64,000 nt of DNA from a virus. Its lineage: Duplodnaviria; Caudoviricetes. Below are positions 1,400 to 25,978 of the stretch, piece by piece. Position numbers and translations under genes: made by a program. The notes below the pieces were generated by a model. It had not been told where the DNA came from and ran no database searches. It worked only from the letters and a program-made list of their open reading frames with translations. The stretch spans positions 1-64,000 of IMG/VR virus record IMGVR_UViG_3300011989_000009, one strand, 5' to 3'. How positions within the stretch are numbered: the first letter of the stretch is position 1; the number at the start of each line of letters is the position of its first letter.

Positions 1400-1540
1400 T
1401 TTTTCAGCCTGTATTTTTCACAAATTAAAGTTTTTCTTGTTATTTTTCATTGAATAAGGCGAACTTTGTACCGCAAAGCGGCATCCTACCGAACGGAGCA
1501 AGCGCTGCGTTACGGTTCTTTTGTTTCCTCGCTGTAAGGG

Positions 1541-9539: not shown

Positions 9540-10877
9540 TTATTTGTAATCGCAAACAGTCACTTTATAGCCCTTATGATTGAAGATGCGCTGCACATAG
9601 CTCTCTTGATGGAAGCGGATTGCCAGCGGAATGATGTCCCGGACGGTGAGCTGGTCTACCTCCTTGCCCAGCGCGTTCTCTACATTGTCTTTGAACTGCT
9701 GTGTACCCGGTCGGCAGTTGCCGGACGCCAGAGAGTCCTCAAAGGTAATCACGTTGTCCATGTAGGCCTCGGCGTTGGCTTTGCGCGCTGCAACCTCCTT
9801 TGCATACTCTTCTTTGAGTTTCTGAGCTCTCAGACGGATCTCTCGTGTCTGTTGCAACTTGTACAGCGCGTCACGCAACATGGCGCGCCGGTGCTCCTGA
9901 TTGATGGCGATAGCCTCATTTAAGGACTTCGCTATAATATGCTCGCCACGGACGAGATAACCGCGTGCCGTCGTATAATCCCATCCCTTCTGCTCGAACC
10001 ACATACAGGGCATACCAAGGCGGTTGAACTTACCACGATAGAGCGTCAACAGACCACCGACACTGACGAAGTGCCAGCCCTTTTTAAGATGGAGCTCATA
10101 AGAGTAAACGTGCTTGGTAAATCGGCAGCTATTACTATAACGGTCATTGCGCTCGTAGATCTTGAGTGAGTTTTCAGCCGCATTGGGGACAACTTTAAAA
10201 TCGTCTATATTCGCATAAAGTCTATAACTTGTCATGGCGGCACAAAAACGATCATCACCGCGACGGATGGCGGCCTTGCGCTCCTTCGCCTGTTGCTTCT
10301 TCCATGCCTTTTCTTCCTGAGCCTCTTTCTTAGCCTTGGCTTTGCGCTTAGCCTCCTTCTGGGCCTCGACTTTACGAGCTTTAGCCTTGGCTGCTAAAAC
10401 GTAAGCATGAAGACCACTATAACGGCCACCACGACGAGCGGCTGCATCCATCTGATCTTTAATATAACGCTGGTCAGCGGAAGTCAGAGACATCTTGGTA
10501 ATGTCAGCAACGGTAGCCAGTTTGAAGTTGTCGATGGAATCCTTGGAAAAGCGAGAATCACGACGAAAATAGAGATCCTTAATACTACGCTGATAAGCCT
10601 TTGGCGTTAGCATAATCTGAGCATCTACATCAAGATAGACGACATCCCCAATCTTAACAGGAGAGAAATAGCCGTACTCAGTCTCTACATAAGTACCACG
10701 CATCTTGGTACCGTCAAGAAATACGATGAGCTCATTATTTCTTGAAAACTCTGCATCAATCTCAAACAGGTTATTATAAAGCGCGTAAACGACATCTTTG
10801 GAAGCCGCACAACCTCTCAAAACCTCAGTAAAGGAATAGCCTTTAGCAGCGATGACGGATAAATCTAAAGTTCTCAT
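9540..10877 (-). CDS. Hypothetical basic protein
   Basis: Start MRTLD at 10877 after the leader hairpin; K/A-rich coiled segment. Confidence 0.75.
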   Translation of the reverse strand: MRTLDLSVIAAKGYSFTEVLRGCAASKDVVYALYNNLFEIDAEFSRNNELIVFLDGTKMRGTYVETEYGYFSPVKIGDVVYLDVDAQIMLTPKAYQRSIKDLYFRRDSRFSKDSIDNFKLATVADITKMSLTSADQRYIKDQMDAAARRGGRYSGLHAYVLAAKAKARKVEAQKEAKRKAKAKKEAQEEKAWKKQQAKERKAAIRRGDDRFCAAMTSYRLYANIDDFKVVPNAAENSLKIYERNDRYSNSCRFTKHVYSYELHLKKGWHFVSVGGLLTLYRGKFNRLGMPCMWFEQKGWDYTTARGYLVRGEHIIAKSLNEAIAINQEHRRAMLRDALYKLQQTREIRLRAQKLKEEYAKEVAARKANAEAYMDNVITFEDSLASGNCRPGTQQFKDNVENALGKEVDQLTVRDIIPLAIRFHQESYVQRIFNHKGYKVTVCDYK

Positions 10878-13697: not shown

Positions 13698-13942
13698 ATT
13701 AAAAAATAATTTTATGAGCCTTGCGACTCGGTTAAACTTTTCAATTTTACGAGCTTTTCAACTCGGATTAATATCTTTCTTATTTCTGATGCAAAGTTAA
13801 GCAAAATATTAATACCATCCAAATTTTTAGCTAACTTTTTTCACTTTTATCTTAATATTTTCTGCTTTTATTACAAAATAGTCGGTTTATAGGTTATTTT
13901 TGTTTGTGTACACCTTATTATATATAGGCCGCAAAAAATCTC

Positions 13943-14290
13943 ATGCTCTCACCATCTCATACCCTGATGATCAGCACGCCCAGCCCCCACCATCTCACGC
14001 CCTCACCATCTCATACCCTGATGAGCAGCACGCCCAGCCCCCCACCATCTCATGCCCTCACCATCTCATACCCTGATGAGCAGCACGCCCAGCCCCCCAC
14101 CATCTCATGCCCTCACCATCTCATGCCCTGATGAGCAGCACGCCCAGCCCTCACCGGTGCACCCTCACGCCCTCACCATCTCATGCCCTGATGAGCAGCA
14201 CGCCCCAGCCCTCACCGGTGCACCCTCACGCCCTCACGCCCTCATGCCCTGATGAGCAGCACGCCCAGCCCTCACCCGGTGCACCCCCGG
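13943..14290. repeat. C-rich tandem repeat array (~55-65 bp units built from CCCTCAC/CATCTCA sub-repeats)
   Basis: CCCTGATGAGCAGCACGCCCAGCC recurs about six times. Confidence 0.9.
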
Positions 14291-14574
14291 CGGCATATCT
14301 GGACCCCCGCCCAGGGATCGGAGGCGGCCAGGCCGCCATAGTGTGGCGGCGCTGTCCGCTGAGAATGTCGGCTTTTTCGGCTCGTTTTCAAGTCAAAATC
14401 GTCTTATTTTCAGTTACTTACAGACATAAAAAGGTTGCGCGTTCACACGACTTTGAGTTGTATGAACGCGCATTTCAGCAAAAAAATTACAAAAGGAGTG
14501 GTGAAAAAGAATAATCCAGTTCCGAAAAAGACCATCTTACACTGATGCAAACGGCTGTCAACGTGGCTAAATTC

Positions 14575-15015
14575 TTAGTCCAAAACCATGAATTTTGTAC
14601 CGCAATGCGGACAGATGAGCACGTCGGTCTTCATCGTCTTGCCAACAGGCAGCGACGCGGATTCACCATCCGATGGCGATTCTTCATCATTTGATGATTT
14701 CATGTGTTCATCATTTGATGATTTCATGTTTTCATCAGTTGATGAATTGATGAATGACGGAATGGGCACATACAGGTGGAGATAGGGGTCGTCGGTATGG
14801 GATATTTCATTACCATCATCGTCAACGGCATAGAAAAACTCACGGACATCAATGCCGATGGCGGTAGCGACCTCAATGAGCTTCGTCATCGTGGGGTTGT
14901 TGGAAGAGAGCATCTGTGAAACGCTCGACGGTGAAATGCCGAGAATATCACTCAAACGTTTATTGGAAATGCCTTTCTCGTTGAGTGTACGGCGCATATT
15001 TAAGACAAACTTCAT
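14575..15015 (-). CDS. XRE-family HTH transcriptional regulator with C-terminal CPHCG tail
   Basis: ISNKRLSDILGISPSSVSQML..NPTMTKLIEVATAIGID; promoter TAACTTTG at 15047-15054. Confidence 0.85.
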   Translation of the reverse strand: MKFVLNMRRTLNEKGISNKRLSDILGISPSSVSQMLSSNNPTMTKLIEVATAIGIDVREFFYAVDDDGNEISHTDDPYLHLYVPIPSFINSSTDENMKSSNDEHMKSSNDEESPSDGESASLPVGKTMKTDVLICPHCGTKFMVLD

Positions 15016-23858: not shown

Positions 23859-23969
23859 TTCCAATATGATCTTTGATTTTCCTACAACAAAGATACAAAA
23901 CCAAAGCCGCCAAATGGGGACAAAAGAAAACCCTGCCCGCAAGATGAGAGAAAACTCCTATCCGTCTCA

Positions 23970-24130
23970 CGACACGCAGGAGCTCTGACGTTATTAAAAG
24001 TATTAAATGCGTTAAAAATCATTCTACTTTTTACATACTTCCTGCAACCGTTTAAAACGGATTGCGGTATCGTATCGGACATAACGAGTGCCCGCTACCG
24101 ACTATCCGAGAAAACTCGGAATCGCCGACT
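23970..24130 (-). ncRNA. Putative TnpB omegaRNA (right end plus guide)
   Basis: Hairpin GCAATCCGT-TTTAA-ACGGTTGC overlaps the tnpB stop. Inferred right end ..TTTTAATAAC at 23990, guide GTCAGAGCTCCTGCGTGTCG. Boundaries are inferred. Confidence 0.5.
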
Positions 24131-25272
24131 ACTTTTCTAAGGATGTTCAAAGCTCCGTTTTGATCAGCATTAATCATCTTCCTGGTCGAGGAACGGAACA
24201 GTCCGCGCTTTACCCTGCGTCCAAGATATGTTTCATGCTTCCCAATCGGTTCAAGAGCAAGAGCATCACACTTGCTTGTGTAACTTTCCTCGTGCACAAT
24301 GAACTTAATTCCAATCATCTCGCACTTATAGCGGAGATAGCCTGCCAGTCTCGCAAAAGGCATCTGAACAAACTTTTGATTGTTCTTTTTGCCCATGTCG
24401 GAGTTTTGTTTCCATCCGACATTGTAGCCTACAACCAGCGTTCCTATATGTTTCCGCACAAGTGTATCGACAATCTGACGGCTAACCTTATGAAAGGCAT
24501 CCTCAAAATAGCGGTCTCGTTTGTCATACATACGAGTGATTCTTCTTGTCGTTCGCTTTATGCCTTGCAGATTCTTGATAGACTGCAAGTGAGAGAGTGT
24601 TTTGTTAAAGTGATTATTGTAAGATTTGAGATATTTGCCGCTATAAATCGTGCAGCCTTCAGAAGTAACCATTGTGGCGAGATTATCAAGCCCAAGGTCG
24701 ATAGCAGCGTATTTTGTCTTATCCACATCAGCTTGCTCTATCTCCTTTTCATAGACAATTTCGACCTTGATGTTACGGCTGTTGGGTATTAAGCGCACCT
24801 GGTGGAATGGAATTAGTCTCCCGCCATATTTCTCCCATTGAGGGATAGATATATGCAAATCTTTAGCAAGCCGAATGTTCCCATTCTTAATACTGCACGC
24901 AACATAGGTATAATACAAGTTAAACATACCACCACGCTTCCGGTAATTAGGCATCTTGGGCATCCCCTTGTATTTTTCGGGATGTTTCTTCCAATCCTTA
25001 ATACTTTTGCAGTAAGCCTTAATATTCTTGTCGAGAACACGCAGCACCTGCTGGGAGCATTGTGATTTCAATAATCTGTAGTTACACTGGCCTTCAAGAT
25101 TGAGGGTCTTTTTCATGAGCTTATCCATGTCGTTATACCATATCCACGTACCGTCAGCATCCAGTTGCTGACGGAACAGATACAGTGCCTGATTGTACAG
25201 ATTGTTTGAAATTCTAAACAACCTGTCAAGTTCTTCTGTATGGTGTATGTAAAACTTATAGACTAATCTCAT
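24052..25272 (-). CDS. tnpB: TnpB family RNA-guided nuclease, copy 2 (complete, rearranged RuvC-II type)
   Basis: RuvC-I AIDLGLDN; VVGYN in place of the canonical VxEDL; EESYTSK; RuvC-III NADQNGALNI. Confidence 0.92.
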   Translation of the reverse strand: MRLVYKFYIHHTEELDRLFRISNNLYNQALYLFRQQLDADGTWIWYNDMDKLMKKTLNLEGQCNYRLLKSQCSQQVLRVLDKNIKAYCKSIKDWKKHPEKYKGMPKMPNYRKRGGMFNLYYTYVACSIKNGNIRLAKDLHISIPQWEKYGGRLIPFHQVRLIPNSRNIKVEIVYEKEIEQADVDKTKYAAIDLGLDNLATMVTSEGCTIYSGKYLKSYNNHFNKTLSHLQSIKNLQGIKRTTRRITRMYDKRDRYFEDAFHKVSRQIVDTLVRKHIGTLVVGYNVGWKQNSDMGKKNNQKFVQMPFARLAGYLRYKCEMIGIKFIVHEESYTSKCDALALEPIGKHETYLGRRVKRGLFRSSTRKMINADQNGALNILRKVVGDSEFSRIVGSGHSLCPIRYRNPF

Positions 25273-25300
25273 TTTTCAAACCCTCTTCCATTATTTCGAA

Positions 25301-25663
25301 CTACTTTGCTATAGTCCGATTGTACAACTTTTCCTCTACCAACTCACCTAAGCAAATAGGACGCAATGAGCCATCTTCGTAAGGAACAAACACTTCCAGG
25401 TCTTCATCCAACAACTCCTGCATGATGCTCAACCGTGCCGAATCAGAATAGATACGATGAATTTCGCTGATGTTTAGCGTAGGAAATTGTTGCTCCAGCT
25501 CACGTCTCACAACACGTACTGGTTTAAAGTCCTGATAACTGATAATGGCATCAGCCATTCTCCCAATCATCTGCACATTCACACTGCATAATGATTCTCT
25601 AAAATAAGCAGCAATCTTCTGTTCTATAGCTGCCGACGGATTGGTGATGCTTCTTGTTTCCAT
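25301..25663 (-). CDS. Small hypothetical protein between C4-like RNA and tnpB (copy 2)
   Basis: METRSITNPS start; paralog of 824-1180. Confidence 0.8.
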   Translation of the reverse strand: METRSITNPSAAIEQKIAAYFRESLCSVNVQMIGRMADAIISYQDFKPVRVVRRELEQQFPTLNISEIHRIYSDSARLSIMQELLDEDLEVFVPYEDGSLRPICLGELVEEKLYNRTIAK

Positions 25664-25686
25664 CTCTTTGATTTTAACATAAAAAA

Positions 25687-25758
25687 ACTGCACTACGTGC
25701 TGTTAAGGCTCAAAAAGCGATGCCTCCGGGGTGTTTCCACTACCCGACACGGTGCAGT
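25687..25758 (-). ncRNA. C4-like antisense RNA (copy 2)
   Basis: Same three-stem fold. TTAACAG is complementary to TTGTTAA (25839-25845) and ATGTTAA (25674-25680). Confidence 0.7.
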
Positions 25759-25978
25759 CATGAATATTTTCAGACTAAGGTGAAGATACAAAAAATGCCG
25801 CTGATGTGGCAGCGGCCTCTTCGTACCGCTTTCTGATTTTAACAAGGGCAAAATTATAAGTTTTTCGCCACACCTGCAAATTTTTCAGCCTATATTTTTC
25901 ACAAATTAAAGTTTTTCTTGTTATTTTTCATCGAATATGGCGAATTTTGTGCCGCAATGCGGACAGACATAAGCCCTG

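Follow-up and report, generated by a model that had tools for sequence, protein, structure and literature searches.

A c4-2 RNA switch precedes a transposase-less TnpB in a duplicated phage cassette and may gate it as a homing-type nuclease

Why would a phage carry two copies of tnpB, the gene of an RNA-guided nuclease, each without a transposase gene and each behind an RNA resembling the immunity RNA of phage P1? This arrangement occurs in a 64,000-nucleotide stretch of viral DNA (the window), which comprises positions 1 to 64,000 of the 92,785-bp IMG/VR record IMGVR_UViG_3300011989_000009 (CheckV completeness 95%). Here, coordinates beyond the window refer to the full 92.8-kb record and are given as G000, and L-numbered loci are comparison contigs from metagenomes and IMG/VR. 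The record holds two cassettes, both on the minus strand, which lie in the window as direct repeats and are 94% identical over ~1.5 kb. A first-pass annotation, made from the sequence alone, had read both as promoter, terminator, RNA, open reading frame (ORF) and tnpB, without tnpA. This order was confirmed in both copies, with one RNA target site (b1a1) between promoter and terminator and a second (b2a2) between the RNA, a member of the c4-2 family, and the ~120-aa ORF (ORF120). Neither tnpA nor a serine recombinase/resolvase gave a match anywhere in the 92.8-kb record. Taken as a whole, the locus is best explained, with moderate likelihood, as an operon gated by the c4-2 RNA in which TnpB serves as a homing-type nuclease. 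The two cassettes, and the parts of copy 1, are as follows.

23988-25971, minus strand: copy 2, whole cassette
1 to about 1484, minus strand: copy 1, whole cassette (remainder at G000 92686 to about 92785)
1440-1484, minus strand: repressor-gene relic of copy 1
1375-1368, minus strand: -7 promoter box of copy 1
1364-1348, minus strand: target b1a1 of copy 1
1333-1307, minus strand: leader terminator of copy 1
1275-1200, minus strand: c4-2 RNA of copy 1 (Rfam RF02944, 58.7 bits)
1197-1181, minus strand: target b2a2 of copy 1
1180-824, minus strand: ORF118, the copy 1 form of ORF120
800-1, minus strand: 5' part of tnpB of copy 1

The tnpB gene of copy 1 is interrupted by the start of the record, and its last 99 nt and the right end lie at the opposite extremity. 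This points to a circular or permuted genome whose assembly was broken within the repeat.

The identity of the RNA and its pairing with two sites carry the argument for a switch. In copy 2, the elements concerned are these.

25684-25759, minus strand: c4-2 RNA (Rfam RF02944, 57.2 bits, E 5.6e-10)
25826-25845, minus strand: target b1a1, TTGTTAA..TCAGAAAGCGG, at the transcript 5' end
25664-25680, minus strand: target b2a2, ATGTTAA..TCAAAGAG, abutting the ORF120 ATG at 25663

The first-pass annotation had called the RNA C4-like, subject to a covariance-model search; that search matched both copies to RF02944 well above its gathering score of 41, and the family belongs to clan CL00128, which includes P1 c4. 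Both matches span the full model length and are the only Rfam matches in the window and in the record. The RNA is 76 nt long rather than the 72 nt first assigned. The Rfam structure places a 12-nt loop in the third hairpin and 6 nt of single-stranded linker after it, and these two segments supply the seeds, which in copy 2 are a' (the loop, AUCGCUUUUUGA) and b' (the linker, UUAACAG). The single exposed heptamer described earlier corresponds to b' and was borne out; the second pairing seed, in the loop, had gone unmentioned. Seeds a' and b' complement both b1a1 and b2a2, in the order b then a. Site b1a1 of copy 2 begins 3 nt past the -7 box, and a2 stops one base before the ATG in both copies (25663 in copy 2 and 1180 in copy 1). 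The succession of target, RNA, target and ORF claimed for P1 c4 is thus present, around an RNA that matches the c4 clan model. The a1b1/a2b2 layout of P1 c4 was reportedly described by Citron and Schuster in 1990 and in later work.

The b' heptamer is TTAGCAA in copy 1 and TTAACAG in copy 2, with b targets TTGCTAA and GCGCTAA in copy 1 and TTGTTAA and ATGTTAA in copy 2. These are the sequences first reported, with the qualification that GCGCTAA pairs at 5/7 positions only. One change in the RNA (G to A in b') is matched in both targets (C to T in each), as had been noted. Seeds and targets also co-vary across homologues: among 18 distinct but mutually related c4-2 loci from metagenomes and IMG/VR, the seeds vary widely and the targets track them. 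Cognate duplexes average -20.8 kcal/mol upstream and -16.5 kcal/mol downstream, versus -9.7 and -8.3 kcal/mol for non-cognate pairs, and the cognate target ranks first at 15/18 loci upstream and 11/18 downstream. Between the two copies, the RNA of copy 2 discriminates (-20.6 kcal/mol at b1a1, rank 1 of 18 targets, and -12.6 kcal/mol at b2a2, versus -9.9/-10.1 kcal/mol on the copy 1 targets). The RNA of copy 1, in contrast, reaches -15.4/-13.8 kcal/mol on its own targets and still -12.9/-12.3 kcal/mol on those of copy 2, with which it pairs through a G-U pair. The proposal that the copies have become orthogonal therefore holds for the RNA of copy 2 and fails for that of copy 1, so that orthogonality is one-directional at best.

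From these comparisons of sequence, the view that the Bacteroidota c4-2 motif would work like the P1 c4 immunity RNA is well supported: there are two seeds, two targets and co-variation. A likely attenuation step is proposed in addition. The family may be wider than its model. In L016 and L018 (~100 nt upstream of the ORF start), and in L060 and L062, a c4-2 variant has GGTCAGCGGATAACGCCCC as its second hairpin. The variant RNA and matching targets are visible in the sequences of L016, L018 and L060-L062; L016 and L018 score under the gathering threshold, and L060-L063 were outside the Rfam scan. Since L016 and L018 have seeds and both targets yet no match at gathering, the Rfam model under-detects this subgroup.

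How would such an RNA act on the genes behind it? Upstream of the RNA, copy 2 has two further elements.

25849-25880, minus strand: promoter, with -7 box TAATTTTG at 25856-25849 and TTTG 24 nt upstream
25790-25816, minus strand: intrinsic terminator of the leader (stem 25816-25797, 7 bp and GC-rich, plus a U6 run)

The promoters at 25856 and 1375 (TTTG, then a TAnnTTTG box) are the sole Bacteroidota-type promoter of each cassette on the coding strand, and a sigma-70-like match also coincides with the promoter of copy 2. In homologous loci with a located -7 box, the box lies 2-6 nt ahead of b1. The leader terminator is kept in 14 distinct long leaders, and a search from c4-2 through the end of tnpB found no other terminator. 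Folds that omit the 3' arm of the terminator predict, for 13 of the 14 leaders, a helix between its 5' arm and the 3' end of a1, a putative antiterminator that suggests transcription attenuation driven by an antisense RNA. Because a1 pairs with this arm, c4-2 bound to b1a1 is proposed to promote termination in the leader. We know of no antisense-RNA-driven attenuation of this kind for P1 c4. A conserved GCGGTACGA..CCGC arrangement is found at 25826-25790 of the window and in the leaders of L010, L005, L017, L021, L025, L028, L032, L033 and L036. The leader of L036 carries matched changes in three strands (TCGG / CCGA / TCGG).

What does the switch control? The parts of copy 2 downstream of b2a2 are listed here.

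25301-25663, minus strand: ORF120, 120 aa, alpha/beta, first gene after the switch (118 aa in copy 1)
24052-25272, minus strand: tnpB, 406 aa, IS607 clade (Pfam OrfB_IS605 at 1e-24, plus a Cas12f1-like TNB domain)
23988-24137, minus strand: scaffold of the guide RNA (omega RNA), which runs to the IS607 right end
23968-23987, minus strand: predicted 20-nt guide, flank CAGAGCTCCTGCGTGTCGTG

TnpB had been placed in the antirepressor slot of a c4-type operon. That c4 RNAs control antirepressor operons was upheld for other Bacteroidota phages, in which c4-2 is directly followed by KilA-N (L029), Bro-N (L036), ANT/KilAC (L025) or Rha (L021), or by a small ORF and then Bro-N+ANT (L033). The TnpB of the window occupies a different position, a distal slot behind the conserved ORF120. 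This slot holds a nuclease-family gene in 12 of 12 related c4-2/ORF120 loci (9 with a c4-2 match above the gathering score), starting -4 to +28 nt relative to the ORF120 stop and drawn from three nuclease classes. These are DUF723 or treble-clef proteins, which match PHROG homing or HNH endonuclease families (L016, L018 and L060-L063); GIY-YIG proteins (L010 and L005/L006); and TnpB (the window, 413 aa in L017 and 631 aa in L013), whose lineages are mutually 23-27% identical. Since the distal slot always holds a nuclease and antirepressors elsewhere follow c4-2 directly, TnpB fills a nuclease slot rather than an antirepressor slot. The decisive comparison is L063, where c4-2 and ORF120 are 94% nucleotide-identical to the window, homology stops exactly at the ORF120 stop and the next gene encodes a 507-aa DUF723-type nuclease. 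The nuclease has thus been swapped at a fixed boundary between close relatives, as homing genes are. By this comparison TnpB looks like an RNA-guided stand-in for the protein-only homing-type nucleases that relatives have in this position.

ORF120 itself is well conserved. It has 16 homologues at 57-94% identity (mean column identity of 70% in the alignment), exact copies of the ORF120 proteins occur on seven contigs each in other samples, and the two copies differ with a dS of 0.22 and a dN/dS of 0.05. An alignment-based search for homologues gave one locus in IMG/VR and two in genomes, and a search with a pattern from the ORF120 3' end gave one metagenome contig only. ORF120 had no match in Pfam or PHROG, and the Atlas yielded nothing usable. 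Its AlphaFold2 model is confident (pLDDT 88.8), and the fold matches are to generic alpha/beta proteins only (Z of 7.5 or less; Foldseek E of at least 4e-3), so that no function is assigned. Because ANT, Bro-N and Rha were searched for in the record without a match, ORF120 is the sole candidate there for an antirepressor or icd role. The tnpB gene, which begins 28 nt past the ORF120 stop in copy 2, has a dS of 0.37 and a dN/dS of 0.096 between copies; the low dN/dS of both genes indicates that both have been kept functional in their joined state.

Could ORF120 and TnpB instead have been exapted together? They might form a two-gene immunity effector, a weapon or regulator directed at the host, a resident prophage or a competitor, with ORF120 as the partner of TnpB, for example as activator, inhibitor or antirepressor. 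Such a system would account for the nuclease right behind ORF120 in 12/12 loci, with tight spacing or overlap, and for persistence of the fusion to a dS of 0.2-0.4 with both genes under purifying selection. The cassettes also hold the only c4-2-controlled genes of a record in which no antirepressor is recognisable. We nevertheless consider it somewhat unlikely: the swapping of non-homologous nucleases exactly at the ORF120 stop, between near-identical alleles, is the pattern of a free-standing homing gene, the guides are merely local flank with no other genome match, and the closest relatives of tnpB are ordinary mobile IS607 copies.

Homing would require that TnpB cuts, and its sequence departs from the canonical one. 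At RuvC-II the canonical glutamate has given way (the motif reads VVGYNV), and the protein has lost its zinc finger. Across an alignment of 31 family members (33-53% identity), every sequence retains D192 and D370, and at least 90% retain E329; E329 adjoins E328 and lies five to six residues ahead of the remaining cysteine, a former zinc-finger cysteine. An alternative-glutamate arrangement has been described for IS607-related TnpBs and Fanzors (PMC10711439), and RuvC-II-rearranged, partly virus-specific TnpB branches without a zinc finger are also on record (PMC10691335). From the alignment, we infer that the RuvC triad is complete in rearranged form, with a catalytic role by analogy with PMC10711439. 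No solved structure matched this TnpB by sequence.

These same losses could be read as marks of a TldR-type protein, a nuclease-dead guided repressor that would silence whichever gene adjoins the right end. For copy 1 this would be a 105-aa gene, and for copy 2 the portal gene, upstream of which the guide of copy 2 lies. This we regard as very improbable, because the RuvC-II and zinc-finger losses are common to the whole mobile IS607 clade rather than specific to an immobile lineage, D192, D370 and the alternative glutamate (E328/E329) have all been conserved, as in the rearranged active arrangement (PMC10711439, PMC10691335), and the TnpB is full length.

The guide RNA has been preserved as well. 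The scaffold is nearly invariant relative to IS607 relatives, with three compensatory pairs seen in L055 and a fold z-score of -2.9, a pattern consistent with an intact guide RNA; neither RAGATH-18 nor any other Rfam family matched in the tnpB 3' region. All relatives lose homology at 23988, where the predicted guide begins. The guides are local flanks with no second match in the record. The copy 1 guide has a 24/24 match in L065, inside the intact 105-aa gene and at a site without a right end, with TTGT instead of ACGT at the boundary.

Where did the tnpB part come from? Two features of copy 2 locate its boundaries.

25921-25971, minus strand: left end, a relic consisting of the last ~17 codons (..YVCPHCGTKFAIFDEK and stop) of a repressor-like gene with a helix-turn-helix (HTH) and a CxxC motif
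25300-25310, minus strand: joint between the c4-2/ORF120 module and the IS607 fragment (homology breakpoints)

Window positions 25958-25309 align with the c4-2/ORF120 module of L013, and positions 25307-23988 align at ~90% with IS607 elements in which a serine-recombinase tnpA overlaps tnpB, copies of which are inserted at various sites in other Prevotella-type phages. At the joint, homology runs as far as 25309 for L013 and 25301 for L063, and homology to the IS607 copies L049 and L051 starts at 25307 and 25299. The IS607 homology starts 35 nt ahead of the tnpB ATG and ends at an authentic right end (..TAATAACGT), which in both copies coincides with the ends of L049, L051 and L056. The fragment has no tnpA and no left end, two of the features of an IS607 element. 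By these alignments the cassette is a chimera of a c4-2/ORF120 module and an IS607 fragment with a sharp joint. The cassette tnpBs are sister sequences (support 97/99), which points to one fusion event followed by divergence; their nearest relative, L056, is a tnpA-deleted IS607 copy that retains its left end. At the other boundary, the left end of copy 2 has a 26-35-nt match to the 3' ends of the ORF at 14575-15015 and of L013:996-1493.

This origin bears on a further reading, in which the adjacency is incidental: an IS607 element landed behind ORF120, lost tnpA and its left end and was copied by ordinary recombination, while an internal or read-through promoter that does not depend on c4-2 drives tnpB and the guide RNA, both of which persist only through the usual selfish maintenance of TnpB. 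Related phages are indeed full of same-clade IS607 copies at many sites, the closest relative of tnpB (L056) is tnpA-deleted and otherwise complete, a sigma-70-like match lies just inside tnpB, and the chimera was not found in other IMG/VR records. That reading is nonetheless unlikely in our judgement, given that three unrelated TnpB lineages occupy the same position behind ORF120 homologues, that the repeated unit is the whole chimera, which a 95%-identical phage carries inverted and no further than ~80 nt from that site, and that a search between c4-2 and tnpB found no Bacteroidota-type promoter. Since tnpB has no such promoter of its own and starts 28 nt after ORF120, its control by the switch is plausible, and TnpB is probably co-transcribed and hence gated by c4-2.

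The same phage indicates that the cassette moves as a unit. In L065-L067, a copy-1-type cassette lies no more than 80 nt from the same place in the opposite orientation, so that the chimera in its entirety, together with its RNA switch, acts as a unit capable of movement. The copy 1 right end provides the last two codons and the stop of the 105-aa gene (G000 92600-92700 compared with L065:4560-4710). This gene is truncated by the right end in copy 1 and intact in L065, where the cassette lies 80 nt further on. As to the means of movement, the record has no transposase, no clean target duplication was found and the left boundary is fuzzy.

Several candidate signatures were discarded. A CCGCATTGCGG palindrome at the left end, considered as an IS605-type hairpin, proved to be coding sequence for the CPHCG motif in the neighbouring repressor gene, and it is found again at the 3' end of the repressor-like gene in this and other phages. 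As target-site duplications, AGAACC for copy 1 and GAGCTyCTGC for copy 2 disagree with each other. Inversion between the cassettes does not explain L065, because the copies are direct repeats and the 80 nt beside the L065 left end are absent from the record. A pattern search for the chimeric joint in IMG/VR gave no other record, and empty insertion sites, sought through IMG/VR relatives of the flanking 191-aa and 285-aa proteins, were not found.

On the reading that we prefer, a c4-2-gated operon for a homing-type nuclease, the parts would work together as follows. Each cassette would be a single operon with one promoter, and the first 20 nt of the predicted transcript (b1a1) are complementary to the c4-2 seeds. 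The c4-2 RNA, encoded ~90 nt further along, would most likely be cut from the same transcript, as P1 c4 is. Once accumulated, or when supplied by a resident copy, c4-2 would pair with b2a2 and block translation of ORF120. It would probably also pair with b1a1, freeing the 5' arm of the terminator and causing an early stop of transcription, and the downstream genes would then be silent through missing transcription or polarity. After loss of tnpA and the left end, tnpB with its scaffold and the IS607 right end was joined to the ORF120 stop. Synthesis of TnpB would then be confined to the first minutes after the phage enters a cell that lacks matching c4-2 RNA. There it would cut the allele, in a co-infecting or resident relative, to which the flank-derived guide corresponds, and repair templated by the genome with the cassette would bias inheritance towards the cassette. 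TnpB most likely serves selfish or competitive homing of this kind rather than antirepression.

A number of observations weigh against this account. Transcription from the promoter meets a strong terminator ahead of c4-2, and a U-run follows the c4-2 closing stem, which together make the extent of transcription into ORF120 and tnpB uncertain, and the antiterminator helix is short (5-6 bp) and weak in copy 1. The 18 loci of the duplex comparison are related to one another, so that the Mann-Whitney p-values are optimistic and independence is overstated, although the effect is still large. The presence of a nuclease at 12/12 ORF120 loci fits an obligatory two-gene system equally well. The target-adjacent motif (TAM) of this TnpB clade was not derivable from three left-end flanks, and because the IS607 left end is missing, and with it what normally fixes the TAM context, an empty allele would not necessarily be cut. 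Finally, a cassette at two sites without a transposase is unexplained, and the searches made found no cassette-free allele of either insertion site.

A broader proposal is correspondingly tentative, and we hold it to be possible but doubtful: that in Bacteroidota phage-plasmids a trans-acting immunity RNA, c4-2, gates a dedicated nuclease slot which TnpB and its guide RNA, instead of protein-only homing nucleases, have filled at least three times independently, the whole forming a mobile unit. If it is true, an RNA-guided nuclease has become a time-limited, immunity-regulated gene drive or a weapon of inter-phage competition, and an RNA switch and its nuclease have become a unit that moves and inverts without a transposase of its own. 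The locus is a natural setting in which TnpB interchanges with GIY-YIG and DUF723-type nucleases at one gene position, and this interchange gives direct comparative support to TnpB as a homing nuclease between competing phages. It also offers a compact, testable system: the guide is known, a relative has a natural allele that matches it, and the RNA off-switch acts in trans and comes in two specificity variants. Such a switch might be used as a natural, RNA-based control on an RNA-guided nuclease.

Which repressor might such an operon answer to? One neighbouring gene is a candidate.

14575-15015, minus strand: HTH + CxxC repressor-like gene, 146 aa, with an N-terminal HTH, matches to PHROG repressor families and a single C-terminal CPHCG motif

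Homologues of this gene lie directly upstream of the c4-2 operons in L060, L062 and L013, which makes the protein a candidate primary repressor that ORF120 might counteract. In L063, the DNA after the operon of c4-2, ORF120 and nuclease is 92% identical to window positions 14476-14363, beside the repressor-like gene. The native place of the operon therefore adjoins that gene, and the site, just downstream of 14575-15015, is empty in this phage. Downstream of both, at 13940-14330, the window has tandem ~60-nt G-rich repeats (units such as GGGCTGGGCGTGCTGCTCATCAGGGCATGAGATGGTGAGG), which could be operator or iteron-like sites. In L013 (1682-2140) and L016 (168-602), lipoprotein-like genes with a signal peptide and a Cys lipobox lie between the repressor-like gene and the c4-2 promoter and are probably morons. 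In the c4-2-bearing contig of an unrelated phage, L037, a Pistol ribozyme match (9954-10018, 63.8 bits) lies between small ORFs and a tRNA.

The carrier is best explained as a P1-like phage-plasmid of Prevotella-type Bacteroidota, a gut phage. Outside the window, the record encodes a ParA-type ATPase (AAA_31, 123 bits, G000 82085-82699, minus strand), and a search of the full record found no integrase. Together these suggest a phage-plasmid lifestyle, which fits that of P1, where an immunity RNA is useful.

How does the cassette compare with what is known? The combination of a c4-type switch with TnpB had been put forward as undescribed, and our literature search likewise found no paper describing it. 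Its parts are all known, namely the c4-2 motif (PMC5737381), IS607 TnpB, and TnpB as a programmable homing nuclease (PMC10055086, PMC10690162; review PMC13565253). Both RNAs match the full model of the c4-2 motif (RF02944) at 57-59 bits. The main text of the paper that reported the motif says of it only that it is probably a distant homologue of an RNA already known (Weinberg et al. 2017, PMC5737381); beyond that main text, the target sites, their co-variation and the repertoire of downstream genes are worked out here.

The nearest functional relative is the immI locus of P1 and P7 (P51 - a1b1 - c4 - a2b2 - icd - ant1/2). The two share an RNA of the same Rfam clan, a pair of exposed seeds in it that each complement a site upstream and another downstream of the RNA gene, a downstream site that covers the start of a small first ORF on which the distal gene depends, seed variants that differ among related elements, and a phage-plasmid as host (ParA, no integrase). 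Unlike immI, the present module has a Bacteroidota host and promoter type, a terminator with a putative antiterminator between b1a1 and the RNA, a first ORF unrelated to icd and a nuclease (TnpB) rather than Ant as the distal gene, and it occurs twice, at ectopic late-region sites. It likewise differs from the c4-clan operons with an antirepressor (L025, L021, L033, L036 and L029), since it has no gene of the Ant or KilA type.

Relative to the IS607 copies L049, L051 and L057, the tnpB is ~90% nucleotide-identical and the scaffold and right end are identical, whereas tnpA and the left end are gone and the 5' 620 bp are replaced by the c4-2/ORF120 module. Like the seg and mob homing genes of T4, the nuclease gene lies tightly behind a conserved gene, is swapped for non-homologous nucleases among close relatives and is probably restricted in its expression by an RNA element at the start of the operon. 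Unlike in seg and mob, the nuclease is RNA-guided, control would be exerted by a trans-acting immunity RNA rather than by a local hairpin, and homing is a proposed role.

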